From Amphiscolops sp. MND2022 (taxonomy: Eukaryota): a DNA stretch of 64,000 nt. How positions within the stretch are numbered: position 1 is the stretch's first letter; each line of letters opens with the position of its first letter. The DNA lies in contig OZ076409.1 in assembly GCA_964187785.1 (NCBI GenBank), forward strand, positions 1,860,001 to 1,924,000, given 5' to 3'. Under the pieces are notes generated by a model, which had not been told where the DNA came from, ran no database searches, and saw only the letters and a program-made list of their open reading frames with translations. The translations under genes were made by a program, and so were the position numbers. Shown here piece by piece: positions 2,910-59,109 of the stretch.

Positions 2910-2965
2910 CTAGAGTATTCGGCATGTCCTGGGGTGGTATCAGGTTCGAATCTCTCTCAACTCAC

Positions 2966-22646: not shown

Positions 22647-22792
22647 TCCTCCGGGCCCAAGAAGATGTGGAGAAACGAATCAATTAAACAAAAAAATTTT
22701 TTTTTCGAATTTATATTTTCATACATGTTACATGGAATATAATATTGTAAATAAAGTACCGTGAAATGAAACAAAATTTTATGACTTATAAA

Positions 22793-29203: not shown

Positions 29204-29494
29204 ACTATCAGGAACGAAGAAGAACCTGGTATGTACAGTCTGTTTTTGTTATCACAAATGCTCACAACAAAGCTCAATTACAGCGTCAACCAAGCAATTA
29301 AGCTTTGGACACAGCTGATTGAAAGAAAAGTTGGAGCTGAGGGTTTTTTAGATGTTTCTTTTAAAAGTAGTAACCAACTACAGTACTACGGTTGACGGGA
29401 CGAAACGACGATTTTAAAAAGGGGCGCGTTCCCGAAATTATGGTAATTCGTCCTGTTTATTGGTGCTCAATGAGCGAGGAAGGCCGAGGAGACC

Positions 29495-29649
29495 TCAACC
29501 GGACAGTTAAGTCCGGACACAGTCCACCCGGCGAGTAAAGAAAAGGAAAGTTGTTTCTGAGTATCAACCGGACAATTAAGTTCGGACGCAACTCAGAAAG
29601 CAGACGAAATGGCTGTAGAAACTTCAACCAGACAATTAAGTCCGGACAC
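29495..29649. repeat. Three spaced 26-bp hairpin repeats in the BEL leader
   Basis: TCAACCGGACAGTTAAGTCCGGACAC-like units at 29495, 29564 and 29624, with spacers of 43 and 34 nt. Confidence 0.92.
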
Positions 29650-29684
29650 CGTTGCTACAGCACAGTCAGGATGGTAGAAGGGGT

Positions 29685-30302
29685 TTAGGACGACGGAGCA
29701 GCAGCTGCTGCTTTTTGAATCGCTTTTCGGGCGCGCTTGCTGGGTCGCTTGGGGCGGCTTTTATCTGTTATGCTGTTAAGCTCGCTCTCCTTTCGTAAGA
29801 GAAAATCAATATGCTTTAATTCAATCTCGGGGCTCTGGTGTAAGGCCTTAAGTTTTTTGAGAAAGTCGGGATCTTTCTGTTTTCTAGTGGAAATGAAGTC
29901 GTCAACGACACTGAACACTTTAATGTTCGTGGTTTTTTCGATTTCTTTCAGATTCAGCAAAATGTTAGGGGTACGGAATCGGTGGCAATACACTAGAGCC
30001 CGGAGTTTGTTTTCGAAAGTTTTCAAAATATCTAACAATTGCGAAACAGTTAACGGACGGAAATTATTGCTCTCGTGTTTGGAAATGCTATTATTTAACA
30101 CATCATGCCAAATAACAATGTCGGTTTTTTCGGAAAGATCTTTCGAGAGCAAGTTTTGTACTATTTTTCGGGGGTTTTTTGTGTTAGGATTAAGGCTCAG
30201 GCCCGGAATCGAGAAAATTTTTTCGTTATAAGTTTTTCGGGTTTCAGGGTTTAAGGTGTCAAGGGCATGGTCAACGGAACTTGCTGCTAAAATGTGTACC
30301 AT
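29685..30302 (-). CDS. Extra BEL ORF upstream of gag (205 aa from ATG; frame open to 30359), SGNH-hydrolase-like
   Basis: Intact ORF inside the LTRs. Motif order HILAASS / SIPGL / IVIWHDVLNN / LVYCHR / KALH parallels SGNH blocks I, II, III and V. Basic C-terminal tail. Confidence 0.7.
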   Translation of the reverse strand: MVHILAASSVDHALDTLNPETRKTYNEKIFSIPGLSLNPNTKNPRKIVQNLLSKDLSEKTDIVIWHDVLNNSISKHESNNFRPLTVSQLLDILKTFENKLRALVYCHRFRTPNILLNLKEIEKTTNIKVFSVVDDFISTRKQKDPDFLKKLKALHQSPEIELKHIDFLLRKESELNSITDKSRPKRPSKRARKAIQKAAAAAPSS

Positions 30303-31050
30303 TAGGTTTTTTTTCAGTGACGTGATTTGGTTTTGCTGTATCGTGCTAACGGCAGTCAATTGGAATTCCTTCTCACCTTTTGATTTTAGATATTAAAGTT
30401 TCGAGTTAACAATAAAAAAGGGGTGAGCTGATAGACAAAGAAATGCAAATCTTACTCGGAACAAATCAGGTTATTGTGATCCCGTGACGAATTTAGGATA
30501 ATAACTGTTCACATCAAGGCCTTGCTTCAAATAACAAAAATGAGTTTGAAATATGAAAAATCAAACCAAGATTTGGTTGAGTTCGTTGTTTGTTCACAAA
30601 CCTCGTCGTTGTTGATGTCTAGGAAACGTCTAACCTCCAGGTCATATTTGAATTTCGCAATCATCAAGAAAACGTAACCGTTTCGTCATTTTGATCCATA
30701 GTCACGTCATCGTATTGCATAGTTGCTGGGACCATATTGACTTCCATCCTGTTTTCACGCGTATCGCTCAGTTCGTTTTCTTTCATACGGCTTTTGTTCA
30801 GTGACAAGGGTTTTCTTCCGCCGTATTCTCAGCTATGACTCGTTCGTCTGGATCACAGCCACCGAGGAGCAGACTGTACTGGATTCAGTGAGGATAAAAG
30901 GCTGGGGGGATAAAGTCGTACTTTGGCGGCAGAGCTCAATTATTAGGGTAACCAACCAACACCCCCTTTTTTGTTCCAAGGGGATTGAAGAGGATTCAAA
31001 GAGATTCAATGAAACAGTTGTTCACTCAAAATTATTCATTAGTGCATGTA

Positions 31051-31068
31051 GCCTCTCTATGGCCACCA
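31051..31068 (-). promoter_or_regulatory. BEL primer-binding site
   Basis: TGGTGGCCATAGAGAGGC directly after the 5' LTR, complementary to a tRNA ending ...GGCCACCA. Isotype not certain. Confidence 0.85.
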
Positions 31069-31384
31069 TGAAGAAACCATAGTTTTCGGGAACTAAGGTC
31101 TGTTTAAGTGGAAAACATAAAAATCAGGATATTTATTGGTCCTTTTTATCGTCGTAAATCGAAGCATCAATGTTTTTGAAATATATGTTTTTATCAAATA
31201 ACAAACTGCAAAAGAACATAAATGCAACAATATTAACAAATATTGGTAAACAACACTTTTTGAACTGAGTAGCAAGGCCTTTTCAAGAGCAATAATTCTA
31301 GAATATTCTCGAATTTCCAAAACACGCAAATGAACTAATTCTATTAGCTTTTAATCTTATCGCTGAGCTAATTGCTTGTCAACA
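31069..31384 (-). repeat. BEL 5' LTR
   Basis: TG...CA; matches 22331-22646. Confidence 0.97.
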
Positions 31385-37320: not shown

Positions 37321-38781
37321 TTTTGCACCAGGTAACGATTCGAACTTGTTTAGCAGATAGAAACGAGGTTCGACAAACGTGAATAAGTTATCAAGAAATC
37401 ACCTTTTACTGTATTTCAGCGGGTAATAGTGTAATTCTTCGAAGGAGTAGTTAGCGTTCATATGGCACGTTATTTCTGTGCTCTTTTCGACCTGGCCCGT
37501 TGTCTAACCGGCGAAAAGCTCACGAGTTTTTGGAATTAATATGAGACCATTTATTCAAATGAGATCTTACTAAAAACTAGTCGAAACGCAGTAGTGAGAT
37601 GAAATTTAAAGAATCAGAAGTTCTTTAGTAGTTTCTTCTGCCAAGTATCCAGAAACGTTTCAAGTTTATCTCGAACTTTAAATTTTGAAACAGACCAAGT
37701 AAAAAAGTTTGGTACCAAAAACTGGAACTACCACGGATACGAAAAACATTTTGTTGCAGAAATGTTTTTCTGATTTAATGAGTGATTTTTTGTCGCAAAC
37801 TCTCTCAAGATAGATTTTGACCCGAGGACCCAGTAAGGGGAAAGTACCACCGTTCATAACTATTTCTTCAAATTCTAGGAGTGCTTATCTCTTTAAACTC
37901 ATCAAGTGTAAATTGCTAGCAGTAGCGCTGTCCTCAGAAGCCATATGCGCTCTAAGTGAGTATAGAATGGCTGTACATAGCATTCGTCTTGAGATCCACC
38001 CCATGGACACAGGAACTCTCGGATGGGCTCCTAATACCCCGGGCATCTTGTTACCATAATCTGACTGGTTCTGAGAGATTGTTGCTGAGAACCAAGGGTA
38101 TGCAAGATCCCACACCAAAAGCGCTCGTTACAGGTGTTCGGTTGATTCTTAATCCGAAGGCACAGTACAATCACTCTCTACCATATTTGGAGATAATATG
38201 ACTTCTCAAGATCATACATGATAGAATAGCGTCTAAAATCACCGTATTTTGGTAGAATAAGATCTAAAAACACTGTATTGCACTGGAGTAAGGTCTAAAA
38301 TAACTTTTTGAGAGAGATAGGATCCTTTTGTTGCGAAAGGCTAAGGTTGAGAATATGGAAATGGTATCATTCATCGCTCGCATAAATTTTTCTGATTAGG
38401 AACGACTTTTTTCAGAATTTCTTTTAGTGCAACGATGCAAATTTTGTAAGAGTTTTGTAAGATTTATGCATTTTTTGTACCAATTTCAGATGAAAATCGC
38501 AAATTTTGCAAGAATCTTGTAAGAGTTAGTGTCAAATAATGCATTTTCTAACAAGAGTTTTTGTAAGAATTTTGCAAAAGATGCGAATTTTTTCAACTAG
38601 GGTAATCATGCTAGCAAACAACCGTCTTCGAAATTGGAAGTTACTCTCATCATTGAAAAATATGGTAATGAACAGTCATAATATTTTTCATCATTCCATC
38701 ATCGATATCCATTTCCGGAAAAAAGTCTGGAACGAAAAAACAGCCGCTTGAAACAGAATCATGTTTCTCAAATACTGGGTA

Positions 38782-39497
38782 TGTAACGTCAAGCAAGTAA
38801 CGCACATACCAGAACTGGGACAATACTTAGGTTGCCTAGACAGGAGACCATAGTCCTATGACAAGCCTAAATACCAGTTTTTCGTCCCTAAAGGTCTCCT
38901 AGGGACTTTTCCAAAACACCGTGGAGACTCCTCTTATTAGAGCTCCGTGGCGACGTGCCGGCACACTCAAAGTCCGGACACGTCCCACAAGCATGTAAAA
39001 ACGTTCCTAAAGACTTCCTGCGGTCCTACATACTCCCGAGGTCCGAAAGCAGGGTTCTAGCTGAAATGCATTCTATTTCAGAAAATAACGTCTAAATACT
39101 CCATTACAAGGATCTGGCAGATCCGACATCATCATAAATCTGCAAATCAATACTAATGACATCAGAATTAATTAAGATTGGCACTTCTGGTATGTTTCTA
39201 TTGAATTCGCGATTCTCTTCATCTTCTTCGCTGTGGGATATCTGGATCTCAGAACATTTTTGTATTGAAAACGCACTTTTCTGGGGAGATGACACAAATC
39301 CGAGCATTTTTCTTGTTCTTCCTCATCGTGTCAGTGTCTTTTCTTCTTTTCTGGGTCGGGGTGAGGGTCGTCTCTCTTCTTTTTTGCTTCTTTTTTGATT
39401 TCAACGTCCTGCCAGGTCGGCCATTTTGATTCGCACACTTTCTGGTCCTTGATCGAATTTTTCATCGAAAATTTGGTGCTGACTGGTGGACGTTACA
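38782..39497 (-). repeat. Gypsy 3' LTR (PPT GGGGAGGA at ~39498-39505)
   Basis: Matches 56956-57670 with about three substitutions and one indel seen. Confidence 0.97.
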
Positions 39498-39955
39498 TCC
39501 TCCCCGGGCCACTGTTTGTCGTCCTCGGTAAACGGAGAAGGATGCATCACTACTTACAAATGGTTTCAGCAACGTGATTTTCAGTTTTTCTCTTAGATCT
39601 TACTACTTCAAAATTTCGATTTAGCACTTTTTATTTTAGCACTTTTCGATCATTCTGGGACAAAAAAAATCAGTTTCTTTAAAAATTCTTACCATTCGTT
39701 CCAGGCTAGTTTAAAAGTTCTTTTAAGGGTGGTTACACTTAGCCAGAGAAGCGGAGAAGTTTTTACTAAAACTTTAATTGCACTTGTTTTGGCAGTTAGG
39801 CAGGCACCAAGCTGGGACCTACCCACCGGGTAGTTACACTAGCAAAATAATGTTAATACTTTGTTAACTAAAATAGCACTTATTGTTTTGATAACTGCTG
39901 AGGCGTAATACGTTTTTGGTTAGTTTGGTTTGATTGGCCGAGTTCAGTATTTGTT

Positions 39956-42900
39956 TCATTCATGGCCAGTGTCATCCATAGTAGTATCGTCATCTTGCAG
40001 CACTTCATTTAATGATACGGCCAATACTTCCGATGACGGCAGGTTTTGCTGACTCAAGCTAGGTAGTTCGTTCAATTCTAAATCGATATCAGCTGCTAGT
40101 GTTCTCGTCAACGACGTGGGCGCGATTTCCAAAGCTTCTAGCGGCACTGTCTGATCATTGGAAGTAGCATTGGTGGTGTTGACTGTGGTTGGGTTAGCTG
40201 TTTCGGGGTTATGGATGGATACATCGGTGTTGGTTGGTGCTGCAGCTATTGCAATGCTGATTAGACTTGAGATTGACACCATGGAAGTTGATGTATTTTC
40301 AGCAGTAGAAACCTCCTCGTGCCCTGCTGCCTGTCTCGTTGAGGTCGAGCCCGCTGGGCTTAGTTCTGGCAGCTGGTCTGCGAGGTCTTGGCGTCCATAT
40401 CGGAAAAATATTTCTTTGAAAGTCCCAATTGCATTTGAATAACTGTCATATACGGTATTTCCTTCGTCCCTCTGCTTGGTTATCAGACTCATGAAGATTT
40501 CCATGGCCATTTGTGGATTGCTCGGCATCTCTTCATTCAGGGGCAAGGTCTTTCTATTGGGTTCTTTTGCGATTTTCGGAACTGTCGCCTTCAGAGTTTG
40601 AAATCCTTGGTGGATCATTCTGTCCACTATCGGCGGGTCTGCCCAATGCGTAGTGTCGGACAGGATTTTGGCTGTATCGGCTTGCGGTGTCGCTCGAGGG
40701 TTGTACATTCGGGATACATCTTGTATTACTCGATGCTGGAGTCTTTCTGGTGTGGAGCCTTCTCTTCGTCCACCCAGGCGTCGGTCCGCATTGGTTAGTA
40801 CTCGGAGAATACCTGGCTCATCCCAGCTGGCGAAGCCTTGCAATGCTCCAGTGCTGGGTTCTACAGGAGCGTGCAACCATTCTACTGGATGAAGTTCTAA
40901 CGACATAGGAACAGCGCACCGCGCTCTGGCTCGGATCAGGGCACTGAAATTGTACTGGACCTGTTTCTTGTCTTTAATAATCGTGTATGCCATTGGTGGT
41001 CGGAAGTTGGCAAAATTGCGCACTAGCATTTGAAAATCTGGTTGTCTGGCGTCGTCTTCAGGGTCCACGAAATGTAGAATAGATAATGTAGGTGCTTTTG
41101 CGGCAACTCTAAGCGGCTGTGTAGGGTATCTCAGGGCCATCATTAAACCGAATATAGGCCAGACTATGGGTGCGATCATGGGGACTAGATCTTCAGTTTC
41201 TACCAACATGAGGCTGGCTATCTGCGACGGGAATAGGAAACCTGGCAGGTTATTGCTATTGGGTTTTTGACTCAGCCAGTCGTCTAAAGTGCTCATCACG
41301 CCAGAGACATTGACCCAGGCTGAGTAAACCCAAGCCAATAGTGTTTCGATATTCTCGGCGAGCTGGCCGCGCAACTTCAAAGCGCCTGCAGGGTCCAAGG
41401 TGTTTAGAATGGCGTTAATCCAATTCCGCTGGTTCTTGGTGAATATGAGAAAACTGAGTAGACAGGAGTTGGCTTTAGCTAGGACCAATCTCTGCACCAG
41501 GTGCACTGGGCCCTTGTAGACGGCGCCTAGACCAACGGCCATCAAGTAGGCCAAGATCTCAGCAATTGTGGCCCTCTGCATTGCTTCTACATACAGTCTA
41601 ACTTGCTGCTCATCTAAGCTGCTTTCACGCTGCACCATCGTTGGTACCCAAAATGGCGAGATATTATACAAGAATATGGGGAAGGGAATTCCATGACTTT
41701 CTGCTGTTTCATTCAAGGTCACTTGCAGCGTCTCATGCCAAGAGTGGTAAGAATGCTCTGGGTTCATTTGGTTTTCTTGCGCTGTCTTCTGAGCTAATAC
41801 TGTTAACAATACCAGGGTGGGGGAAACCATGTTGGGCTTTGCGTCGATCGCTTGTATCGCCACTGGAAAAACGGTCGCGTCGGTCCGAGTTTGTTTTATT
41901 CCTTCTGTCTTCTTGAAGAGAGCTAGCAGCTCTTTGTGGAATTTAGCGTTGTGCGTCCTCTCATCTAGCGTTGACTCATCTCTCCTTTCAAACCATCCGT
42001 TGTCAATCATGTTTGCCCGTTCCTTTTCATTAGGCTCCTTGACTCGGCGTACCCCATTCTCATCAAAGGAGCGGTGCGCCATTTGCATGCCAAAGTCAAA
42101 GGCAGTAGCATCATCGGCCAACAACTGAGAGTTTCCCTCGTATCCGGTACAAGCCTGCAAGGCTTTCGAGATTTCCGCCAAGAATGCAGAATAAGAGTTC
42201 TCACCCGGACGCCAGGTTGTGGCACTCACTCTCAGGTTCGGTGCTATTATATAGAATGACAAATTCTGTGAGTAGGATGCTTCTGATACTAGATACAACA
42301 TTTGCTGGAGTGGTTTAGGCAAGTATACGTATCCGGGGGCGACACAAAGACTACCCCTACGACGGGCTTCATTCGCTGCACCCGCCTGATCACATTCCTC
42401 ATTGCTTCGACGTACGCAACTACCTCTCCTGTCATCACTTCTTCCGTCAGTCTACGGTTGCCTTCTTCAAAGTATTTCAGCGTTCCTCGAAGAGCCAAGT
42501 GGTCAATCATATTGCTATATATCAGGATCGGAGGGAATGGAATTGTCTCTGCGTGGTTGACGGTGGGACCGAAGACCTTGCAGGTCACCTCGGCCTCTAG
42601 CGATGTGCAGGGCAAGTTCATCACGCGAACATCCATCAGGGTGTTGTTCATGTTCGCCGTTGCTTTCATCGTAGAGTCCATGAACAAGGCAATCCTTGTC
42701 TTTTGCAACATCTCTTTGCCCATGGGGAGCAAGGTTGTTACGTCCCTCATGAAATCACGGCTTCTCATTAGTTGGTCATCGTATCTTGCCGGTCGTTGTA
42801 CGGCTAATTTTACTTTGGAGGGGAGTGGTCTCACCAATGATGACTTGTCTTTATGAAGATTCTCCCTTACTCTCTCGAACCAGGGAGGAATGCGATTCAG

Positions 42901-44196
42901 AAGGAGTGTTGGCTTCTTTACGGGCCTCAAGTAATGCATTCCGATCGTTGCTTTTTCGAGATTCTCCACATCCTCTGGGTTTCCTTTACTGGTAGCTGTT
43001 TCGAATTTCTGCACAACCAATCCTGGGTCTGGATTCTCTGATTTCGCTTCTCGCTGCAGACGCACCGCGTCTCTGGCAGCAATGTCAAGCTGTCGTGCCT
43101 CTGTCTGCGATAGGAGCTCATTAGAGAATCGCACTCGCCTAGGCTCCGGCTGTTGCACTGGGGAAGGATTCGGGCTGGAGTTCGTTTCATCCGTATTGGC
43201 TAAGTCTCTGGCCCTTTTCTTTTGGACTAGCTGTTCGATCTTGCTTTGTTCCTTTCGATTCAATACGTCGCGGAGATCGATAGGGGCCTTGGCTGCTTGC
43301 CTTTCTGCTATTTCTTACTTTTTCTGTTGTTCTTGGCGTTCTGGGTAGGCCTGAAAACCTATTAGGTGATGTGGGTCCTGCGACGTTGAAGGTAGCAAGG
43401 CATCGTAAGAGTCTTGAAATCCGATCAAACCTGTCATGATGGGCACGTCGAGCGGGTTCCGCTTCACTATGGTTCTCGGTCTTTGGCTTGTATCTTGGGT
43501 GGCATCTTCAGTGTTCTGCGCGCTCGTGTGCGCTTCTTCTACCCCTTCTCCCCTGAAAGAAGAAGGGAGCATGAGTTTGTTGTTCTCTTCCAGGCGCCTG
43601 ACACTAATTGGGGCGGATGATGGTGGGAGTGTCAATATCGGCGGAGGTACTGTTGGCAAAAGGCATGTGAATTGCTGTGTAGGCGGTGCTTGCGTTGATT
43701 GACAGTCGCGGGCGCTCTCGGGGGCAGTTATCGACGATATTGCAGGTGCTTGCGTCAGGTTCGTTTGAAGACGTCGTTGCTGCTCCATGGGGGGCCTATT
43801 AGGCTCGCCATATCTCAGGTGCGATCTGTGGCCATCAAAAGGGTGGGTGAGATCATGACCTCGCCACGCGCCATTGTGGAATTCCGCAGTTCTGCGGTAA
43901 GATCAAATTCCAATTGATATGGAGAGGGTAAAGTCCGGATGTATTTCGAGAGACAGCATTTGAGCAATTAGTATGGCAATCCCGGTCACCAGTGATGGAG
44001 AAGGGGCCTCTTGTAGGGTCGATTGGACCAGACCAAGCTGGTCAATTCTGGTTTGAGATTCGCCGACAGGCAGCGAGGACACGGGAGGTTCTTGCGTGGC
44101 AATCGTCGGCGGTTGTGATTGGTCCATTCTGCTGGTGCTCGGTTGCGAGCTTGTTGTTGATGGAGTTGGCATGCGGGTTCTAGCCGATTGATCCAT
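39956..44196 (-). pseudogene. Gypsy third ORF (~1400 aa if joined; segments 43903-44247, 43315-43788, 42289-43263, 39956-42322) with an SGNH-like domain
   Basis: Contiguous minus-strand coding segments. 43315 is an in-frame stop, and a 1-nt loss in the G run at ~42335 joins VSPP to GYVYLPKPLQ. No signal peptide or clear Env features seen. Confidence 0.75.
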
Positions 44197-44515
44197 TAAA
44201 GAGATGGGTAGCACCTTGGATAAGTGACTATGGTGGATATACTGCAAATATGATGATATACGACTGGCTGCGTCAAGTGCATGGGAATTGACAGGACTGA
44301 ACTAGAAAAAAGAAAACAACAGACGTCAATTTGAGCTAAAATACTATTGCTGATGAATGCAATTGATATGATAAACATTAAAAGACAATAAGATAAAACA
44401 GATTCGACAATCCACGTTAAAACCTAGTTCAGGGATTGACTCAAACAACACATATGCTAAGAACAGGACGAGTGGCCTCCCTTATTGCCATTTTTTTCTT
44501 TTGTGCCACAGTGAT

Positions 44516-46235
44516 TCAATCAAATTTGGATTTTACATGGTTGTGGTGTGTCCTCACTAACGCAATTGATACATACACCCTATCATGGAGGACTATGTCG
44601 ATATTGGAATCAATGAAATGATCTTTCAACATTGAATACCAAGCTGGTAGCATGTTGATTGATCTTTCAGGGTCATAGATGGGAAGATTGATACGGGTGA
44701 TTTGTGCTCGTGTGAGCTTCTGCACAAGGTCTATCAGGCACAGATGTAGCACTTCATGTAAAATGGGGTGTTTACTAGAGGCTCTGGTGATTAGCAGGAA
44801 CATTTCGTTATTCCACGGTGTTGCCGGTGATCTGGTGAGGTGAATAGCCTTTCCTACGGCTGGGCGTAGTCGGAAAATTTCTTCCTGGCCATATTCCCTG
44901 ATGACGTAGCGCGCCATTGCTGAATGTGACAGAAGATCTACCGGACAGCATATTACTACGGTACGCCTGGCTTGCAAAATGTCAGTTTCTTCGTAATAAA
45001 TCCATGATAGATAGTTCAGTTTGATCTTCGGATGCGTTATCAATAGTTTTCCTGTGACTGTGCTTTGATTGTCTTGAATTGGTGTGAGATGATCCAAAAT
45101 GGCCTTACGGTCTTGCCACACTGTTCTGCGTAAAGGTCTGTCTCCCAAGTTCGTGCAAGACCAATCGTGAATTACGGAGAGTGCTTCCAGCACGGTCGCT
45201 GGGTTCTCAAATGTATACGTGTGTTTGTCTAACAGGCGTATTTTGGCTGGGCGACAAAAGATGATAGCTAGTAGCTGTAACCAATGTTGACTGAGGAATT
45301 TCCCACGATAAATATCTGCTAGATGGAAGCATAAGGTGTCCTCGAACTCTACAAGCGTACGCAAATTTTCCAAGCAAATCAGTAAAGTTCCTGGAGTCAC
45401 TAGTGATGTTTCGTCCAAAGAGGTGACCAAAAGCCACCAACCAGCCGTTGGGTGATACACATCTCCAGGAGGGGATGTTACACCATATTGCTGCCATAGT
45501 CTTCGCGCGGTGATACAGCGGACCATTGCTATTCGTGTGTCACTTGGTTCTATTCTTCCAAACATCATCGATGGTGGGAGTGGGGGTATGATTGCGGTCA
45601 ACGTGAATTCTAATCCACTTTTTTCGTGCCATGTCCATTCCTTAAATCGGTAGGTGGGGCAGTCTGATGGAGATGTTTCTTGCATGGCTTTTAGTGTGGT
45701 TTCCAGGGGTGGGACCACGGCTGGTCCAATGCTCGAATAGGTCTTTTCCACGGTAATCACAACATGATGTACTTGTGGAACCTCTTGGTCCTTAGCTTGT
45801 ATGTTTCGGATGTGTTGCATGTGGTCTTCCTTTGTTTCGGTAACAGCTGTGTCTGGGGCAGGAGCGTCTACTCCCCGGGCCAATCGCTTGTCCGGTGGTT
45901 TTCCACTAATTAGGTTGACGCAACTACGGTTACGGGAACCACATGTTCCGCAGCGATATCTAGGAGTTCTATTGCGTCGCAGCAAACAGGGTGGTGCTCG
46001 TGAGGTTGTTGTTTGTTCCGCTTCTGGTTGCTCTGATGATAAACTTTCTGCGATGTTGGGTAGTGTCATTGCACGTTCCAAGGTTTGAGATTGTGCTCTG
46101 GTTCGCAATCTGCCTCTCGATCTGATGTACAGTCGGTGCGTGCTTGCAAGTGCTCTGCTTGATGAGTTGGCACTTCCTCTTCTACGATTTGGAGGTCTGC
46201 CTCTTGGCCTGCCTCTTCTACTCGCGGTTCTCCCG
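44516..46235 (-). pseudogene. Pol C-terminal extension: AT-hook, CxxC motif and two TARG1/OARD1-like macrodomains
   Basis: Frame is open upstream of 46108 through RRGRPRGRPP. Then YRCGTCG, and a C-terminus YYEETDIL..VICCPVDL..AMAR..FLLITR..LHLCL..INLP..LKDHF..SNIDIVLH that matches the TARG1 pattern. Confidence 0.75.
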
Positions 46236-47559
46236 ATGATGGCGATGTTTCCATGCTGTGTCCGGGTTCTGGAATTTCTCTGTCAGTTCTTTCTTGGGGT
46301 TCGGGTTCCTCGATAGTTTGTAGTCCTGCCGAGCTACCAGCTCGAGAACTGAGCTGTGGAAAATTGCTCAATGTGTCGGTTAAAGCTGGGTTTGAGAGCA
46401 ATGGTGCTGATGTTCCTGATGGCGAGGGTATCAGACTTGGTGTTGGTTCTGGCCTGACTTCCTCTTGATCTGAATAAAGTGGTTCTAAATCGTCGATATC
46501 AGGGTAGATCATTGGTTGTTGTGGCTCTTCAATGGGTTGACCCATTTGTTCTTGGTCGGATTCCGACTCAGAAGGGTATCCAAAATGACTGAATCGTCTT
46601 CGAGGGATTCCCCGTTCCAAAGCAGACTGAGTACGTGTTTGAATCGTGCTTGGGGGAACGGGCGCGGTCGGTTCCATCTCGAATGATGCCTCTGGCAGTT
46701 GTTCTGGAAGAAATGAGTCACGTGATATGTCTGACGTTATTTCCTCATTACTTTCCTCCACGTATGGGTCTGCGATGATGGCAACATTCTGGTCTAACCC
46801 AAAGGGTTGATGTGCCGCCCAATCCCACGGCGCAGGCACATGCTTCTTCAGGCGTTCGAAGTGAACCTTTTGTCCTGCATCCAAAACGTATAATCTTCCA
46901 TCTTGTAATACATCTGTGACCTTATGAGGTCCACGCCAGGCACGAAGGAGTTTGCGGGTGCCACCTTTAGGAATTATGTGGCAGAAAACCCAAACAGCAT
47001 CACCCACCGCGTGAGCTTTTGCTTTCAAATGCTTGTCGAACTTCTGTTTTTGTCGTATTTGCGCCTGGTGTGTGTTTCGGCGAACAAGTTCGTGGATTTC
47101 TTGTTGTAGTAGTTCAAGTAGGTGCTCCACAAATTCTTCTTTGGACTCAAACTCTCGCGCTGCGAATTCTGGGTATATAAACGAGAGTGGAATGGATTTT
47201 TCTGCGCCATGTTGGAGCATATACGGGGAAAATCCGGTCGTTGCATGTCTGGTTGAATTATATGCACCCAAGACTCCGTCTATGTGTTCATCCCAGTCAA
47301 GCATTCTTCGAGACGTATAGACTCGGAGCAAGGTCAGTAATGTTCGGTTTTGACGTTCCACTAAACTATTGCCTCTCGGATGAGCTGGAGTAGACGTTAT
47401 TTTGGTTACTTGCGAGGCTTTCATCAGTTGTTGAGCAATCTCAGCAGTAAAGTTGGTGGCATTGTCTGATTGCATCCTGGCAGGAGTGCCGTGTCTTGCA
47501 AACCATTTGTTCAGGATGATCTTTGCAGTCGTCTGGGCGTCATATTCGTCGTGTGCCAT
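46066..47559 (-). pseudogene. pol: Integrase core plus acidic/Pro-rich linker
   Basis: QSDNATNF, VERQNRTL, GAYNSTRHATTGFSPY, WRGPHKV. Confidence 0.95.
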
Positions 47560-50500
47560 TGGATTGCCTCTGCAAATTTAGTGAAATGGTCGATGACGAC
47601 TAGCAATCCATTATTTCCTGACGTTGTTTTGCACAACTTCAAATAGTCGAACTGCACCAGGTCATTAAAGTAGCTGCTGTTGATACTTTGTAACGGATAA
47701 CAGGGATTCCCAGCGGGATGTTTCGTCTGTTGGAATGTTAAGCAGTGCTTAATATAATTGACAACATCACGCTTGATGCCTGGCCAAGTGTGGCGCTCCT
47801 GGATTCTTGCCAACACTTTACCAACGCCTTGGTGTCCTGACTCGTCATGCGCTCTGTACAAGATTTCGTGTTGGTATAGCTGGGGCATGACGATCATACA
47901 CGGTCGTATGTGCATCGCGCGTTGCTGCGGAATGTAGTAGACACACAAGATATCATTCTGGTTCAGGAACAGTAAGTCTTTCTTCTGGTGAAAGTACCGT
48001 TTGGCAAAGTGCTGCACGTCTTCGGGGAACAACGTATCCTCTAATGGCTCGTTCTTCATGAGTTTCTTCAGCGCTAGCAGATGTACATCTCTGTTTTGAG
48101 CTAGATGAAGATCTTTCAATCCGCGCATTGTTGACTGATGCTCGTGAAGCTCAGTCCCGACTAGCCTGAGGACGTGAGCTTGTTCCTGACACTGCGTAGG
48201 CAATCTACGCAGTGCTGGGTCACGTTGGGTGGTGTCCAGACGTGCCGCTGGAACTTTGGTTGTTACGCTAAGGATACAATTCGGTCTGTCGTCTTCGGTC
48301 AAAGTCGGAGTTGTTTCCCATTGCACCTGTGGGTACCATGGTATGGAACTCAAGGACGGGTCTGAGGTTAGGTCTTCTTTTGGTGGCTTTTTCAAAATGT
48401 ACAGCAGTGGAAGTTGTGCTCGAGCTTCCGGTGGAAGCTCTGGATGGTTTGGAATAAATTTTCCATGTTTGTCGATATAAGGCACAGTGGGGAGTTCTTC
48501 GTAGTCTTTCTGGGGCATGAAGCTGAATCCCTTGCTCACTTCTGGTAGAGTTTCCACGATCTTCTCCCGATGTACGTAGTCATTGGTCCTTTTGCTAAGA
48601 CCATCCACATTTCTATGTTGTGTGCACGGTCTGTGGATCGTCTTGAAATGATATTGGTCGAGGCGCGCAATCCAGCGTCCAATCATGGCTTGATCCATTG
48701 AATATGTCTTCAGCCACGAGAGAGCCTGGTTGTCCACACGCAGCGTGAATTCCCGACCTGCAAGGTAGGAATGAAATTTCTCGATGAAATAGAATACTGC
48801 ATACATTTCCAGCTTCGGGGCGCCATAATTCATTTGTGTTTTAGTCAGTGACTTGCTGCCGTAAACAATAGGACGAAGAATGGTTTTCCCATTGTATTGT
48901 TGCTCTTGGTGCAGTATGCCGGCTATAGCAACTGCACTGGCATCCGTGTCTAGAACGAAACGTCCCTCTTCGTTAGGCGCTGCCAAAGCTGTGGCATCGA
49001 CCAATGCCTGCTTTACTGCATCGAACGCTTCTTGGTGTCTTTCTTTCCAGTAGAAGTGTTGGTTCTTCCTTAACAACTCCTGCATAGGTTGCACCTTAGC
49101 AGCATGAAAAGGAATGAAATCTCGGTAGTAGTTCGCAAATCCAATTAAGCTCTGTAATTCTTCTCTGTTTCTGGGGGGCATCCATTCTTGGATTTTGCTA
49201 ACAGCAGCCGGGTCAGGCTTTATGCCTTCGGCCGAGACTACTCTTCCGAGGTACTTGGTTTCAGTGCGCATGAAGTCACATTTCTCTGCTCGCATTTCGA
49301 GACCTGCCTCTCTGAGACACTCGAACACTTCTCTGATTCTTTCCAAGTGGTCTTCAATGGTTTCTGTCGCAATCACTATGTCATCTATGTATGCCATGAC
49401 AACGCTTCCATGTCGTTGTTGGATCTTCTGTAGAGCTCTCGTGATCGATCGCTGAAAAGTGGCCGATGCATTGCATAGCCCGAAGGGCATGCGCCGCCAT
49501 TCAAACAGGCCAAGTTCACACGCGAACGCCGTTTTTCTGCGATCACGCTTCTTCAGTGGAATTTGCCAAAAGGCCCACGCCAAATCGATGCTCGTGAAGA
49601 TCTTTGCATTCCCAATCCTCGAGAGGATTTCATCGATTCTGGGTAGTGGAAATGCGTCCTTCACTGGTACATCATTTAGCGGGCGGAAGTCACAGCTCGC
49701 CTGATTTCTTTTTCACCATGACTATGCCACTGGCCCACGGAAAGTAGGAGGGTTGTATCAGACCAAGGGCCAGCAAGTTTTGCACTTCTTGATTGGCTTT
49801 CGCCGCCTTGTCAGGGGACGTTCGCCTAGCTCCTTCTCGGTGTGGTATAGCCTTCGGCTCTAGCTCTATCTTGTGCTTTGCAATCTTACACCTACCTATG
49901 TCAGACTTATTTTTCATGAATAGGTCTTCATACTCATTTAATATAGTTTCTAACTTGTTTCTCGCCTCTTCCCCCCATGAAGAAAGGACGGAAGAGAGGT
50001 CAGGGCCTGGGATTGCTTTTAGCAGCTGTGGATCTGTCCTTTTGCGCTTTTCATTATCTGATAAACCTGCCTCAGACGGTTCGGTCGAAGATAAAAAATT
50101 TTGGGCAAAGGAACTGAATTCTGAACTGGTGTCCATATCAAAGTTTCTATGTATTTGATTTACATGTTCGGCAGAAAGTTTCGAAGCTTCACCTTCAGTT
50201 TGCATAAGAACAGAGTTCAATACAAAAGTGGTAAGCGCCGCTTTGCCAATAACAGTTTGTGCTTTGATTTTCACCCGTTCTTTATCAGTTTGGTTAGGGA
50301 TGGCTAAAAATACTATACCTCCTTCTCCCACAGAAGTCAGTGTATCTTTTGAAACAAAGACTGAACTGGACTTTATGCTACATGACTGGACCGTTACATT
50401 ACGAAACAGGAAAATGTCAAGTTGTTGCCTGATGATTTTCGCGCGCACAATCTTCCTTTCGAATGGACCTAGTATTACGTCTTCAGTGGAAACTACAAAC

Positions 50501-50613
50501 GATGGATCGTGGTCGCTTACCTCATGAGTGGCTTTAAAGATTCGAGGTGTTTTGGGATCGCGGATAGTCACTTTCATTGCTGTCAGGTCCACCAACACGT
50601 TGTATGTGCGCAA
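47511..50613 (-). pseudogene. pol: Reverse transcriptase, RNase H and integrase Zn finger (lesion near 49690)
   Basis: PWASGIVMVKKK, DAFPLPRID, MPFGLCNA, YIDD, TDASAVAIAGIL, DNQALSWL, HDESGHQG. Confidence 0.96.
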
Positions 50614-50912
50614 GAAATTACGACCCAGGAGGAAATCCTCCCAATACGATCGGCTATGACTACAAAGTTGGTCTTCAGAGTATTTCCGCCGAGCTGAAAG
50701 CTTACATCTTCGGCTATACCCACGGTGGTGATGCTTTTGCCATTGGCAGCGAAGAGTTCAACGTCATATGGTGATAGGCTCAGCGTGTGCTGGGAAGCAA
50801 TCTTCTTGTACGCACTCAATGAAAGGATGGAAACTCCCGATCCGGTGTCAATCATGCCGAAAAGTGGTATCGGTTTTTGCAGAGGAGTTCCGAATGCTAC
50901 TACTAGCGAGGC
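50583..50912 (-). pseudogene. Retropepsin aspartic protease (frameshifted near its C-terminus)
   Basis: MIDTGSGVSIL; in frame with the gag ORF across a single TGA at 50913-50915. Confidence 0.9.
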
Positions 50913-53900
50913 TCACTCATCAATCTGGGCTTCTCCTTGTGCATCTTGCACTCCAATGCTATAACAACGCAGTTCTTGCCTGCCCAGATATAGGCCTTGC
51001 GGAAAGTGTCCTTCCAGGACAACAATCGCATCAAACCTCATGTCCACACCATCAACCGTGATCGCTATGGGGACTGGCGCGATTGTCTTCACTCTCTGTA
51101 TCTGGGCCAGCTTGGTCTCATCATTCCTGGTAAAGTGGGGTAGTGGTCGCGAAGCTATCGTCAAACTGATATTGCGGCACAGTTCTTCTTTCAATTGTGC
51201 TAATGTGAGATTTGGACGCGCCTTTTGTTCCGCGGATAACAACAGATGGATGGATATTAGTGTTTCAGTACAGTCAGGCGCTGGTGCCTCAAGTGTCGTC
51301 AAGATTTGTTTCTCACCACAAGTTACAACCACAGGGCGTGATGGGCCTCCGTCTTCTGAAGTCGAGATCACCCTTATTTGATCCTCTGAATCGCAAAAGT
51401 CTGTTGAGTTTGCCACCGGGGCGTACCACGTCGCTTTTACTTGTTCTTCCGTTGCAACATTGTGAGGCGTCATACAATCAGATGCCACGTGGCCTACATG
51501 ACCACAATTAACACAAAATGCTGATGTTCCTTGTTCTGGTAGGGTTGCGGGCATTAAGTCATCATTCATGCCGCGTGGGATCGATGGGCACACCCATTCT
51601 CCAGCTGTGTTCGTGCGACACGAATTAACTATTTGCTCTACTGGTTTCCGTGCTCGGTCTTTCAAAGGACAATCAGCTGCAAAGTGTGAAGGATCTCCAC
51701 AGTTGAAACACGTTCGCTGCGGTTGTTGTCGGAAAGCTGGAGGCTGTTGTGGGAGTTGCTGGGCGTTGGGCGCTTGAGGTGCTTGTGCCTGTGCTTGGTT
51801 TTGCGGGTTCGCTGCGACAGGCGGCTGTTGTTGTTGTTGTGGTGCAGGATAATTTTCCGAACGTGTCGAACCACGCATACGCAGGTATTGTTGTACCGTG
51901 AATCGTAAGGCCTCCACAGTTGGGGGTGTGTCTACATACTGTTCCTGTGCATACATGAGTGCAAGGTTTCGTTTCAACTCATAGCTTCGTACCCCTTCGA
52001 TGAACTTCTGCATAATTTCATAGCGCCTCACCGCAACTTCCTCGTTGGGAAAACCTTGGCTGCGCAAACCTTCCAATGCGTCAAGGTATTGCATGTAGTC
52101 TTCATCCGGGGACTGATTACGTGTAGGGAACTGTTGTTGTATTTGGATCTTATTAGATCCTGTTCCAAATCTTCGTGCTAGCAGCGCGAAGACTTTTTCA
52201 TCAGTATCGCGTTCCGCTTCTGATTTATTTGTAATATAGTCCCGTGCTTCATTTTGTAGGAACTCCACAATGGTCCATGCTCTGTCTAAAGGAGTGTCTT
52301 TTGCATGGGCTTTTTCCAGGTAACGCCTCATCAGCATTAGCCAGCCATCCACTATTCCATCGCGTGTGCCACGACACTTGGTAGGTTTGTTCTTGGATTC
52401 TTTGGCTGCTAATAATGGCCCCAGACCTTTGGACATCGCGGTGGTTATTGCTTCCGCCAACGCTTGGCTGTGTATAGCGTTTGGAGCATTGTCTTTGTCC
52501 TTGGCAGCTCCTTCCACCGTTCCAGTGTTCAGGTTCCTTCTCGAGATTGTCTTCCTTTGCGTGCTAGAGGCCAATGGCCGTGATTGGTCGTTACTATGGG
52601 GTAACATTGAGCGTTTTGTGCCAAGCATTGACGAAACAGCAGTTTGATATTCGGTACTTCCTGATGCTGTTTTCATGTTACTATGCATTTGGTCGCTGGC
52701 CGCTGAGTAATAATGTCCAGTCGTTGAGGCACCTCTAGCATATGGGTCGAATGAAGGGGGGCCTGATATGTCGCAGCGCTGTACTTCAGTTTGACTGGCT
52801 GTTGACAATTGGGTTTTCATCGGCACCTTCTTGTACGTTGCGGGTGGTTGTAACTTTGGGTGTTTGTCTGATCCGGTTTCGTCACACATTGGCGTTTGGA
52901 AACTTCTCGATAGGAGGGGTGCTGAATAGGAAACGCACTCGTAGATGGTATGTCTGCAGGGTTTGGTGCCACCGGCACGGGTGAGGGACGGTTTGGTATC
53001 GTCGCCACTACGGTCTTCACCCCTAGGGTTAAATCCTGGACCGTAGTCATGAGGTCCACCATGCGTTTGTCGACATCTAAGTCTCTGTGGTGCATCATTT
53101 CGGACATGTGTTTTAGGCGCTCATCCGCTTGCTGATCTCTTTGCACCATTATTGCCGTCATCTCCGATATACGTTTTTCCGTCAGGTCCTTGACTGATGC
53201 CACGGACGTTTCTATCTTGCCCTGGTTGACTCGTCCTTCCATCTTGATCTCACTCACCTCCTTTCGTAACTCTTCTACTTCCATCACCAGAACTTCTGCC
53301 CGACGGACATGGTCAGTGTTTTCCTGGGCTAACTTTATTTGGACTCGTTTCAATTGTTCCATACTATGTCCAAAATCTTCTCGTATGGCTTCAGTTTCTT
53401 TGATACCTCTGGCGATCGTCGAATTTGGGGATGCTGCACTGCCGGCATCGGAGTGTTGGGGCGTTGCCGTGCGTTCCAGCAATGGTGGTGTAGTGGAGGC
53501 ATAATTCTGGAGAGTCACTCCTTTTCTGGTCTTCCGCTTTCCCGGCTGACTTTCCGAAGGAGCTATCGCAGTGTCACCCAGTGTATTTCTGCTACTATCA
53601 AACACTGGTACTCCGGAACCCAGCGGGTCCGCACTTGTGCCCAAGTGAGGGGTGATTTCTCCCGAAGTCATGCCCACATTCATATTGTCAACCCACTTAC
53701 TGATATTCGAGCTAGTAGCTACTTCTCTATTCGAGTTCGGCCAGTCCTCGGTAACAATCACGGAAGTGGTCAGAGGAAGCCATACGTTGGTATGGTTTAT
53801 GGGAGTTTCATTAGCAAGTTCGGTGCTATCAAAGGACATCTTTGAGGAATTTGCTTGGCCTGTATGCGCAATTTGCGAATTTTGCTCAATGTTAGACACG

Positions 53901-53983
53901 TTATCTGACATTACGTCGTCTAAAAACAGGTCGGCGATCATATCCAGCGGTGCTATTTCAGCTTGTGTACTCAGGGTATGCAA
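50913..53983 (-). pseudogene. gag: Gag region (coiled-coil 52817-53983, frameshift, capsid, two CCHC knuckles, degenerate protease-like domain)
   Basis: WLMLMRRYL...L..RFG...RNQSPDEDYMQY capsid pattern; knuckles CFNCGDPSHFAADC and CVNCGHVGHVASDC. Confidence 0.9.
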
Positions 53984-56921
53984 CTCTTCTATGTTGTTCG
54001 CGAACGGGTTGTAGCTTGAAATTCACTAGACTCCAATGATGTCTCACTCACGAATAACAAATATTCCCACTCACTCAAACTCATTTTTGCTTGCAGTTTT
54101 TGCAGCTCAACTAAATTAGATTTTTTTCCGTCTTTTACTCACTCCTTCTCTTCAACAAATTGAATTGAAGGCAACTCAAAATGGAAGTTTTGATATCCCT
54201 TTCTCAGATATTCTAACTAAACTGTCGTACTATTAAGTTCTGGAGTTTGTAGCTCGTGATCGCCCTCTTGATTCTATTTCGAGATCAGCTGACTGTCATA
54301 AACTTCACACTCCTAATTACATGCACTAACTCAAGATTACATGCACTGGTGTTAGTCACCACTAATCAGAACAGAAAGGTTTGTTTCCCCACTAACTGGA
54401 GATAGTTATTCTACGCAAATTCAAAGTTAAGCTTTTTAAGTTTTTTTTACTGTTACTCACACTAAACTACGCTTTATCTAGCCACAGGCTATGTGGTCGG
54501 GATAAGTAAAGGCTTTGGCGCGCTATCAGAACTTTGCAGAGATTTATTCAAGAAATCACCGCGCTTTTCTTCTGGGAGCGTACACTTTGTCACTCGTACT
54601 GACTTTTAATAGGAGAGCACCTGTGGTGTTGCTACAACAAGGGGTGTTCGGAACTAGACCTTGGGGGTGAGTAGGTGTTAGGACATTTTCAAACAAGAGA
54701 GTTATCGTAATCTGATCGTAGCACGATCAATGGAAACACAGTTCTTTACAATTTCATATGCTACTATACTCAATTTTCTGTCTCGAGACGCACCGCGTCC
54801 ACTATCCACGTCTCCTAGAGAACTCCTAATTGCGTTTTAGCTCTCTCGCGTCATTTCTCAGTCGAGGCAAACGTGAATGCACCTATCAGTTCGCATTAAG
54901 GTGACCCTGGTGGTCGTTGGGAGAGAAAATACAATTTTTGTGTTTTGCACTCCTATGTCTCGTAGACAGCTTTTTGACAAACCCAAGGTTTTAGGGTTGA
55001 GCTAGCTCTATTCCGATTACTTCAATGGGACGTGCTATGGATGCCTGGTGTAGAATTAGGGTCGCTTAAACCTTCACTTGCAACTACACCTACGAAAAGT
55101 GTATAATTTTTCGCAAAATTTCTCAAAATCGGCAATTCTTTCCCCAAAGTGCACGCCTGGGGAAGGTGATTATCACTTCTGGAGCTAGTAGCGACCTGAA
55201 AAATTAACACGGTATACTACTGTAACCAAATCGTGGGAAAATTACCTCCGATTGCGCCAAAATTGATTATACGTGACTTGGGGTCGCTTCAGAATGTTGT
55301 TTGAAGAATCGACTATATTGTGAAATTTACAAAAGTCTGTCAAACTCGCCTTCTAGGCTTCCTAGCTACCTGAAATTTTGTATGCGAGCGTGAATTTTGC
55401 CCACGTAACAGAAAAACAAAATAGCGGGGTGCCCAGGTCAATATTCCGCAATCCGAGTTGACAAAACTATGATGTACCCTATTAGTCACTTCCTGGGGCC
55501 AAAATTCACAAAAATGTCAATTTCTCCAAATTGGACAGTAGCAAGCTGCTCAAAATGCACAAATCGTCGGGCTCTAGTGCTGTGTGTACGAAAATGCAAG
55601 AATTTTAGTGCTGGGATACTCCGAAGGTGTTGCACTATGCTCAACTAAAATACGATTTTTTTTGACAGTTTCGTACAATTTTTGAGCAAAACTGCGGCTA
55701 AGATTTCTCAATCACTAGTAATGGTAGCGCTACGAAAATTACACCACTAACGTAACTTTTTGCGGTCTACATGATGGTGCAATTCGTTTTGGGCTACTCC
55801 TGCTAGGAGAGATTTCGACTTGTCTCAGGGACACTACTCCAGTGTTCCGAAAATGTCGCGAAAACAACGCGTTTTCGGCCATTTCTCAGCAACTATTGGT
55901 TGGAATTACTCGCGGTTTTCTGCGTTTGCAACGTTATACCCTATACTAACGGATAATAGGCAAGCAAAACCTGGCAGAGTCCAAATAAGGTCTCTCAAAC
56001 TAACTTTCAAGTTGCACCTTTGACACTCTGGAAACAATGTGAAAAATACGTATTTTCGCTAGGAACTTTTTATTTCTCGGTTCCCAGATGTTCGGGATGG
56101 TTTTAAAAGTACAGTAGGAAGGCGTGACAACTTTATTTAGGGGAGTGGGGTTATTTCAATTATTACTTTTGATGTTATTACTCTCAGGTCTATGGGGTCC
56201 TCTTGTTTCTCAATGTTTCAACAATTTAGCCCAGCAAATTTTTCTGTTCCTGACCTAGCAGGTCTGATGGAACGTTTTTTTTGTATTCCCACTGGCCGTA
56301 TCCTTTTCCACTAGATTTCAACTTTCAACACCTCAAAAATCGGTATTTGAGCTATATATGGTGTTGTTTTCAAGGTTTCCGCGCTCAAATTTTGAATCAA
56401 CTGGTCCAAACACCCACAGGGTATTTTCCCCAGTTAATTTTAGTGGGAACAGGCTTGGGAATATGCTTTTTGGGCCGATTATTAGAAAGAATTAGCAATA
56501 TAACCCGATTGACGTGGGTATACGGCAACTACAGGGGTACTGGAGGTGTGATGTCGGAGGTGCTCACACACTGTCGTCAGCTAATTGGGGCCTTCAGCAC
56601 TCGTCCTCCCGGTCCCCATACATTGCTAATTTACTAAAACGGAGCTACAAAACCCTTTAAAACCAGTTCCGGATAGGCTGGATTAACATTTTCAACAGGT
56701 GTTATCAAAATACAAGGGGTACACTGTCTGAAATCGTCGATTTTCGGTTTCAGACCCCGGAAATACGCAGGACACGCAGGAAAAACACTAGTACAAGGCC
56801 CACAGGGCTAGAATAGGGCAATAAAAACAATCTAGGACTCTCCAACAAGTTTTCCTAGATCCAGACCTAGCAGGGCCGGAAAGCAGGAAAAACTCCAATT
56901 ATGGCGAAAAGATGGAAAAAG

Positions 56922-56939
56922 GTCCCTTGTGGGGCGCCA
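56922..56939 (-). promoter_or_regulatory. tRNA-Lys-like primer-binding site, 16 nt from the LTR
   Basis: TGGCGCCCCACAAGGGAC resembles the Lys3-type PBS TGGCGCCCGAACAGGGAC. Confidence 0.75.
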
Positions 56940-56955
56940 TAAAAACTACTCTAGA

Positions 56956-57670
56956 TGTAACGTCAAGCAAGTAACGCACATACCAGAACTGGGACAATAC
57001 TTAGGTTGCCTAGACAGGAGACCATAGTCCTATGACAAGCCTAAATACCAGTTTTCGTCCCTAAAGGTCTCCTAGGGACTTTTCCAAAACACCGTGGAGA
57101 CTCCTCTTATTAGAGCTCCGTGGCGACGTGCCGGCACACTCAAAGTCCGGACACGTCCCACAAGCATGTAAAAACGTTCCTAAAAACTTCCTGCGGTCCT
57201 ACATACTCCCGAGGTCCGAAAGCAGGGTTCTAGCTGAAATGCATTCTATTTCAGAAAATAACGTCTAAATACTCCATTACAAGGATCTGGCAGATCCGAC
57301 ATCATCATAAATCTGCAAATCAATACTAATGACATCAGAATTAATTAAGATTGGCACTTCTGGTATGTTTCTATTGAATTCGCGATTCTCTTCATCTTCT
57401 TCGCTGTGGGATATCTGGATCTCAGAACATTTTTGTATTGAAAACGCACTTTTCTGGGGAGATGACACAAATCCGAGCATTTTTCTTGTTCTTCCTCATC
57501 GTGTCAGTGTCTTTTCTTCTTTTCTGGGTCGGGGTGGGGGTCGTCTCTCTTCTTTTTTGCTTCTTTTTTGATTTCAACGACCTGCCAGGTCGGCCATTTT
57601 GATTCGCACACTTTCTGGTCCTTGATCGAATTTTTCATCGAAAATTTGGTGCTGACTGGTGGACGTTACA
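56956..57670 (-). repeat. Gypsy 5' LTR
   Basis: Matches 38782-39497. Confidence 0.97.
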
Positions 57671-57855
57671 GTAGGTTCAATTTTTGGTTGCCGATTCTGG
57701 TTGTTTATGTTTTATTATTTCTTTTTTAATTTTTATTTTTAACGGAATTTATTTTTTAACATTCAATGTGACATCAAGGAATGATATGTTTCAACATTCA
57801 ATGCATACTTTGAACTTTTGTCAATCCTTTGACAATTATTTTTACACAGATCTTA

Positions 57856-58601: not shown

Positions 58602-59109
58602 TACTTATGACTGAATGTTACGTTAAAAATTGAGTAAGTTACTTCGAAAGATGCAAGCTCAGCAAACTGGGGGCATCTTAGCACTGGTAAAGATATCGGA
58701 TGACGTACGCATTGTTCTAATTCACTCGAAATTGTCCGAGCCGACTCGACAAGAGCATTGTCAAAATGTGCCATATGAGCGCTAATCTTCAAGCAAGACT
58801 CTAATGTCAAGATAATGCCATCATTATTTTCTTCAAAACCGCGAAATTCAATCAGTTATGGGTTGTTCGTTGTATGCTCCCTTTCCTTAGTTCTTTTATA
58901 TTACGGCAATGACACAATGAAGGACCATTGGTCCCGACTCATCAATCTACAAAGGAAGCTATCGTCTCCAACCTTGGCTCTAGAAACCCCCACAGGGCTG
59001 TTCGGTAAAACTTCATGATGGACAAAATCAAAAAAAGAATATTATTCTAAGTGAAATTGGTTAATAAAACCACTTTGCATGTTTTGTTAAGCTTGAAGTT
59101 TGTAAAGAA

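Follow-up and report, generated by a model that had tools for sequence, protein, structure and literature searches.

What does the third gene of a Gypsy-type retrotransposon encode when it is not an envelope (Env) protein, and what could such a protein be for? The question is raised by a stretch of 64,000 nucleotides (nt) from Amphiscolops sp. MND2022 (assembly GCA_964187785.1, contig OZ076409.1, positions 1,860,001 to 1,924,000 of the forward strand), which we call the window and whose own numbering is used throughout. On its minus strand the window carries a long terminal repeat (LTR) element with a very long third open reading frame (ORF3). An earlier reading of the letters alone, the original prediction, had described this frame as a ~1400-aa non-Env protein containing an SGNH-like (pseudo)esterase. 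Our analysis makes it highly probable that ORF3 is indeed a non-Env protein with an SGNH fold that lacks the canonical catalytic triad. What we add is that the lost His appears to have given way to an Arg that is nearly invariant, and that the gene is broken in this copy; the original prediction had missed both.

A third gene between pol and the 3' LTR

ORF3 is located after pol and before the 3' LTR and runs from an ATG at 44196 to a stop at 39956 (~1,413 codons, minus strand). The end of pol is separated by 214 nt from an acceptor-like site upstream of the ATG, and the ORF3 stop by 459 nt from the 3' LTR. The claim that it belongs to a Gypsy element and sits there agrees both with the Pfam domains of the element and with its LTR pair. 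The parts of the gene are the following.

39956-44196, minus strand: ORF3, ~1,413 codons with two stops and one frameshift, from the alignment to its relatives P0190 and P0201
44302-44330, minus strand: splice-acceptor-like site (pyrimidine tract, TAG/TTC), 105 nt (35 codons) upstream of the ORF3 ATG
42895-44196, minus strand: N-terminal low-complexity arm, ~430 codons, weakly conserved, with low predicted local distance difference test scores (pLDDT) for the modelled part
42143-42891, minus strand: predicted SGNH-fold domain with a helical N-terminal extension, from the AlphaFold2 model, structure searches and residue alignment
42693-42667, minus strand: SGNH block I, Ser codon 42675-42673
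42624-42598, minus strand: SGNH block II, register from Table 2 of PMC10792757
42528-42496, minus strand: SGNH block III, register from the same table
42220-42191, minus strand: SGNH block V, Arg codon 42211-42209 at the His position
40370-42121, minus strand: conserved, apparently helical C-terminal region, ~570 codons, with invariant residues in eight relatives down to ~25% identity
39959-40369, minus strand: acidic Ser/Thr-rich low-complexity tail, net charge -18 over the last 92 residues of P0190

The copy in the window is disrupted by premature stops at 43905 and 43317 and by a frame change near 42335, within the SGNH domain, and it also differs from its closest relatives by a two-codon in-frame gap. 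It is 92-94% identical to the open relatives P0190 and P0201. Both ends of the protein, which had been called disordered, are of low complexity and poorly conserved, the N-terminal arm being 26-49% identical to far subfamilies and 0-28% to distant relatives. The stretch of ~500 unrecognised and largely helical residues reported after the SGNH domain appears helical as described, and it had no match in Pfam, PHROG, NCBIfam, PDB sequence profiles or the ESM Atlas, but it is longer than stated (~570 codons, 42090-40370). This C-terminal region, which holds one proline-rich hydrophobic segment, is a candidate new domain. A model of 1,041 residues of ORF3 was of no use (mean pLDDT 33.8), and nothing could be learned from the fold search made with it.

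A predicted SGNH fold in the middle of the protein

The fold of the middle domain was predicted with AlphaFold2 on the natural fragment P0042, which in the searched stretch has 97% identity to the window, using an alignment of 55 rows picked from 363 proteins for coverage and diversity, decayed copies included. In the resulting model the ten-residue means of pLDDT are 76-98 across residues 81-370, and the predicted template modelling score (pTM) is 0.69. When it was compared with 48,161 chains by VIA-align, the best matches (top Z 11.7) were the PAF-acetylhydrolase 1bwp and the GDSL lipase 3p94, with 180 aligned residues and a root mean square deviation (rmsd) of 3.9-4.0. Among the best 50 rows, GDSL or SGNH appears in the title of 11, and nine are in the SGNH table of PMC10792757 (for this and the other articles cited, our statements refer to the portions of text available to us). 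The OSK domain of Oskar is at rank 45 (Z 8.3, 158 aligned, rmsd 3.9, 15% identity), its score tied with those of many esterases. The remaining rows we take to be esterases, lipases, acyltransferases or known SGNH carriers. Foldseek pointed to the same family with weak E-values (best 1.8e-3 in pdb and 3.3e-4 in the viral search).

By sequence the protein went unrecognised. No significant match to ORF3 came from Pfam, PHROGs, NCBIfam, PDB sequence profiles or the ESM Atlas, the best hint being Lipase_GDSL_2 at E 0.27 in one of 20 members, and the Pfam OSK family did not match the domain. One match to a designer PPR protein (E 2e-6) was rejected because it adds up weak repeats over SGNH block III. 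The SGNH-type fold proposed by the original prediction is matched by the AlphaFold2 model, and the middle of ORF3 is predicted to be a flavodoxin-like alpha/beta/alpha domain of the SGNH kind.

A conserved site with Arg apparently in place of His

The five SGNH motifs that had been read by eye could be located at 42693-42143 (minus strand). We counted residues in our alignment A10, with the register of the blocks given by Table 2 of PMC10792757. Block I preserves its Asp (39/41) and the nucleophile Ser (38/41). In block II a Pro is nearly universal (46/48), and the canonical Gly appears in only two of 48 rows, both from one lineage. Block III keeps its Asp (48/50), and the canonical Asn is absent from all 50 rows and its position taken by a hydrophobic residue; another Asn stands two residues before it in 46 of 49. 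The acid Asp of block V was found once among 52 rows, and its His position is occupied by Arg in 44 of 50, by His in three, by Cys in two and by Gly in one. The claim that the Ser was kept and the His lost is borne out by these counts.

Nine rows chosen for their divergence, which belong to six deep groups, have Arg, Asn210 and Asp213 without exception (9/9 each) and Ser in all seven that could be scored. That these residues are so tightly conserved when the groups share only 21-40% identity speaks for a maintained site rather than for decay. The three rows with His were considered as an active lineage and rejected, as they are in close subfamilies and the window codon is CGT; His and Cys at the Arg position would fit CpG decay of that codon. 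To judge from these sequences, a site with the Ser kept and Arg for His is absent from the 30 reference structures of PMC10792757, among which the sole loss of the His is that of Oskar, where the Ser is lost too.

No clear sign of an envelope protein

The position of ORF3 is the one expected of an env gene. A hydropathy and motif scan, made with simple windows rather than with SignalP or a transmembrane predictor, was applied to six relatives. None has a hydrophobic window of at least 1.5 near the N terminus that could pass for a signal, and an RX[KR]R site is missing from five of the six. All six have the proline-rich hydrophobic segment near residue 1,000 (Kyte-Doolittle 1.95-2.22 over 19 residues), in which Glu or Thr is present in the distant relatives. 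Full-length forms have only 5-8 cysteines. ORF3 does not show the signal peptide, furin site and C-terminal anchor of an Env-like fusion glycoprotein. The scan and the SGNH fold agree with the non-Env character claimed earlier, and so does the lack of a signal in all six relatives and of a furin-type site in five; the claim that there is no anchor needs a reservation, since the protein is likely to have none but the borderline segment keeps the call from being clean.

The acceptor-like site upstream of the ATG ranks third among the 625 YAG sites of the element by the pyrimidines in the 20 nt upstream, and has more T than the top site. Two other subfamilies have a reading of F-Q-F-S-P 35 codons from their Met, the spacing of the acceptor-like site in the window. 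The site points to a spliced sub-genomic RNA from which ORF3 may be expressed. Donor-like GTRAGT sites are located at 54460, 54142, 54074, 54051, 53700 and 53257.

A deep family with many copies

A homologue search with the C-terminal piece of ORF3, in which 8,000 candidates were scored, gave 40 relatives, and the eight clusters looked up have 1,137 members in total. Among the 94 members listed, 26 are 1,341-1,448 aa long (four of them had been picked for length beforehand) and 68 are shorter than 1,340 aa. The ~1400 aa of the original prediction are thus the length of the family, not of an open frame in the window copy. Open natural relatives of this size exist at 47-94% identity, all of them unnamed ENA records, and frames of 4.1-4.3 kb are open in seven clusters, down to 47% identity.

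With a profile, 477 matches at E up to 0.001 were obtained among 1.84 billion representatives; the best 150 of these were mostly fragments of close subfamilies, and about a dozen were distant. Relatives at 22-33% identity share the layout of ORF3, and P0349 (1,140 aa) and P0353 (1,187 aa), from distant clusters, align across both the SGNH domain and the C-terminal region at 26-30% identity. Over eight long relatives there are 79 invariant columns, 77 of them within residues 403-1158 of P0190, while the ends diverge. A tree of 18 SGNH-domain sequences has six deep groups, the order of which is unsure because long branches meet. ORF3 is a real gene of a deep, high-copy family, and not a captured host gene restricted to this copy, a possibility that the original prediction had allowed for.

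P0033, a rearranged unnamed protein, joins an RT (reverse transcriptase) piece 91% identical (81/89) to the window pol with an ORF3 piece 55% identical to P0003. At the sequence level this ties a second ORF3 subfamily to a similar pol, and within this Gypsy family ORF3 seems to change far more rapidly than RT. No locus with an ORF3 relative was found in viral, metagenome or prokaryote genome contigs. The label 'Bacteroidota metagenome-assembled genome' on P0315 and P0363 probably reflects mis-binned host DNA. Two candidates were discarded: P0001 (1,402 aa) as a full-length ORF3, being an internally duplicated fragment, and the SDR name of P0363, which stems from an unrelated fused N-terminus.

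The element and its surroundings

The element that carries ORF3 covers ~18.9 kb. Its two LTRs are of 717 nt each, and Pfam identified zf-CCHC (E 2.8e-9), RVT_1, RT_RNaseH and Integrase_H2C2 in it. Since pol has the order RT, RNase H, integrase and the LTRs flank gag and pol, the element is of the Ty3/Gypsy type.

38781-57670, minus strand: whole Ty3/Gypsy-type LTR element, from the LTR pair and the Pfam gag and pol domains; gag, pol and ORF3 each broken
56955-57670, minus strand: 5' LTR (TGTAAC...GTTACA), from comparison of the LTR pair
50913-54022, minus strand: gag in two frames, with zinc knuckles (zf-CCHC)
44516-50757, minus strand: pol in four pieces (Pfam), with a long tail, 44516-46282, that has no database match
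38781-39497, minus strand: 3' LTR, 99.4% identical to the 5' LTR and preceded by a purine-rich tract

A TGGCGCC word that follows the 5' LTR, ~17 nt further into the element, we take to be primer-binding-site-like. The LTRs are 99.4% identical though gag, pol and ORF3 are all broken and ORF3 is 6-8% off its closest open relatives. No target-site duplication of 4-6 bp was found, the flanks (CCTAC and TACCC) having only 3 bp in common. Together these features suggest that a defective copy was mobilised in trans, that two copies recombined, or that the assembly is in error. A non-coding leader of 2.9 kb (54022-56955, minus strand) separates the 5' LTR from gag; it has several donor-like GTGAGT sites just upstream of gag and is in parts ~70% similar to window 6687-7666 and 14537-15513. 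The last ~150 residues of the pol tail (44516-45000, minus strand) appear to resemble a TARG1/OARD1-type macrodomain minus its glycine-rich loops. This end of the tail has no Pfam, PHROG, NCBIfam or PDB match, and a literature search on the resemblance returned nothing; if it were true, the element would have two eroded enzyme folds.

A second LTR element, which we read as of Bel/Pao type, is found at 22330-31384 (LTRs of 317 nt, 99.7% identical; 5-bp target duplication TCCCT; an open gag-pol of 2,151 aa). Upstream of its gag there is an extra frame of 235 aa (29685-30392, minus strand) that by eye seems to follow the SGNH blocks (AASSV, IPGLSL, WHDVLNN, LHQS), with Ser, Gly and His kept. Database searches gave no confirmation of SGNH for this frame, a literature search for Bel-Pao with SGNH returned nothing, and profile comparison revealed no similarity of ORF3 to it or to Gag. 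The window also contains a tandem duplication of 7.85 kb (1-7733 and 7848-15580, 99.65% identity), pieces of which resemble the LTR and leader of the Gypsy element, and two nested inverted-repeat structures (57854-58603 and 62092-63256), probably small non-autonomous DNA transposons.

Relation to known SGNH cargo

That SGNH domains are not standard cargo of LTR elements, as the original prediction held, is incomplete, since the ORF3 of Vesta (PMC5408684) and an ORF of Ngaro elements (bioRxiv 2021.08.05.455354) precede this one. Vesta LTR retrotransposons of bdelloid rotifers have a GDSL esterase/lipase ORF3 (Rodriguez, Kenefick, Arkhipova 2017, PMC5408684), which is likewise an SGNH-fold protein, encoded by a third, non-Env ORF in a Gypsy-type element. 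The Vesta clones, compared here by their published description only, are of 1.3 kb with S, G, N and H intact, whereas the window ORF3 is of 4.2 kb and has none of G, N, D and H; Arg stands where the His would be, and ~570 conserved C-terminal residues are added. ZfL2-1 and other CR1/L2/RTEX non-LTR elements encode an ORF1p esterase (Schneider et al. 2013, PMC3905857), again a transposon SGNH domain in an accessory protein and a precedent for membrane binding. The block II Pro of ORF3 matches that of the ZfL2-1 FPGARV, before the Gly position. In contrast to ORF3, the ZfL2-1 protein is an active full-triad enzyme and the ORF1 of a non-LTR element; its structure was not among the best 50 VIA-align rows.

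OSK (PDB 5A4A) may share with ORF3 an SGNH fold devoid of a triad, and in both a hydrophobic residue takes the place of the block III Asn (PMC5785220, PMC10792757), but OSK belongs to a host germ-plasm gene with a LOTUS domain and has Asp for Ser, the Gly kept and Phe at the His position. Precedents for eroded or function-less SGNH cargo in retroelements are the Athena-L Penelope-like elements, with GDSL derivatives that lack the catalytic residues (PMC5408684), and the SGNH ORF of Ngaro. These are of other retroelement orders, and the available text on them mentions neither an Arg for the His nor a large C-terminal region. Our literature search, whose scope lay outside Repbase, subscription journals and supplements, did not find the ORF3 family described, and a term search of the available main text of PMC13524379, PMC6338049 and PMC9025612 gave nothing relevant. 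SGNH cargo in mobile elements is already known; what sets ORF3 apart is the size, the conserved site with Arg for His and the large C-terminal region.

What ORF3 may do

We tentatively propose, as a possibility that falls somewhat short of probable, that the SGNH domain of ORF3 is a pseudo-esterase that grips an anionic phospholipid head group and docks particles of the element on host membranes. Membrane docking was chosen because of the conserved cluster of Ser, Asn, Asp and Arg, the env-like position and the precedent of the ZfL2-1 esterase, which binds negatively charged liposomes, chiefly through surface charge (PMC3905857); a membrane action has also been proposed for the bdelloid GDSL ORF3s (PMC5408684). 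A spliced sub-genomic RNA, made via the acceptor at 44302, would be translated into ORF3 in the manner of an env gene, and the protein would be cytoplasmic, since it has no signal peptide. Classical hydrolysis would have been lost, as neither base nor acid remains and both residues of the oxyanion hole are missing. The old active site would be reused as an anion pocket, with the conserved Ser, Asn, Asp and Arg in its wall, and the C-terminal region and the disordered arms may act as a scaffold that touches Gag-RNA particles. The weakest links are the choice of ligand, lipid over RNA, and this scaffold.

Several observations weigh against membrane docking. Oskar OSK, the one known non-catalytic SGNH structure, binds RNA (PMC5785220). 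The Asp-Ser pair doubles as a structural motif, so that the kept Ser need not mark a ligand site (PMC10792757), and the register of Arg on the His position comes from sequence and secondary structure (just before the last helix) and not from residue-level superposition. A His directly after block III, which might be a relocated base, is present in 43 of 49 rows overall and in seven of the nine divergent ones, the other two having Asp or Tyr. The domain is only mildly basic, with a net charge of +1 to +7 in six full rows. Finally, linkage to Gypsy was seen for the window copy and the rearranged P0033 only, not for the relatives at 22-33% identity.

The OSK precedent suggests that the dead domain could instead bind the RNA of the element, with the disordered arms drawing it into granules and aiding germline export, localisation or packaging. 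OSK, which has an SGNH fold, binds RNA and lacks the catalytic residues, came up in the structure search; the hydrophobic residue that it has for the block III Asn (NIGSVD) has a counterpart in ORF3, and the ORF3 termini are long and of low complexity. Against this, OSK ranks more than 3 Z units under the active esterases, it has lost the Ser that ORF3 keeps, the net charge of the domain is modest and the library searches revealed no RNA-binding domain, and we regard RNA binding as rather unlikely, though as a close rival of membrane docking. The His after block III, or else a residue of the C-terminal region, might also be the base of a non-canonical enzyme, in which Ser remains the nucleophile and Arg holds an anionic substrate while an acyl or phosphoryl group of a lipid, or of a protein of host defence, is moved or removed. 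The conservation of Ser, Asn, Asp, Pro-Pro-Gly and Arg extends over the six deep groups, and SGNH enzymes tolerate the loss of Gly, Asn or Asp, some even building triads across chains (PMC10792757). The block V His, however, is retained in all 29 non-Oskar reference structures of that article, and the alternative His is not kept in two of the nine divergent rows; such an enzyme seems unlikely to us, though it too comes close behind membrane docking.

The position of ORF3, the acceptor-like site upstream and the hydrophobic segment found in all six relatives are what a cryptic envelope or cell-fusion protein anchored by that segment would have. Yet there is no signal-like segment, five of the six lack a furin-type site, the cysteines are few, the segment contains Glu or Thr in distant relatives and the middle domain, when searched against viral folds, matched SGNH and lipase proteins, which makes this reading very unlikely. 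Nor do we see much in the idea of passenger DNA, in which a host gene, once captured, would decay within the element and play no part in the life cycle of the latter. The window copy is broken, and many of the listed members are fragments, but gag and pol are broken likewise, long frames remain open in seven clusters and the ends of ORF3 are much less conserved than its core; we consider it highly improbable.

Significance

What non-envelope third genes do in LTR elements is an open question that the rotifer study, in its available text, left untested (PMC5408684), and the ORF3 family is a sharp test case for it. A bolder and, we think, quite doubtful extension of membrane docking is that ORF3 represents an old, undescribed class of envelope substitute of animal LTR elements, common to Gypsy lineages of several animal hosts, in which a Ser/Arg-remodelled SGNH site with a new chemistry or ligand and a new fold of ~570 residues would carry particles along host membranes or across them, with no fusion glycoprotein involved. 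Unless a role in transmission emerges, the impact would be on specialist fields (mobile DNA, pseudo-enzymes). Non-catalytic binding of lipid or RNA by ORF3, if true, would split what transposon esterases do as binders from what they do as enzymes, in parallel with the repurposing seen in Oskar.

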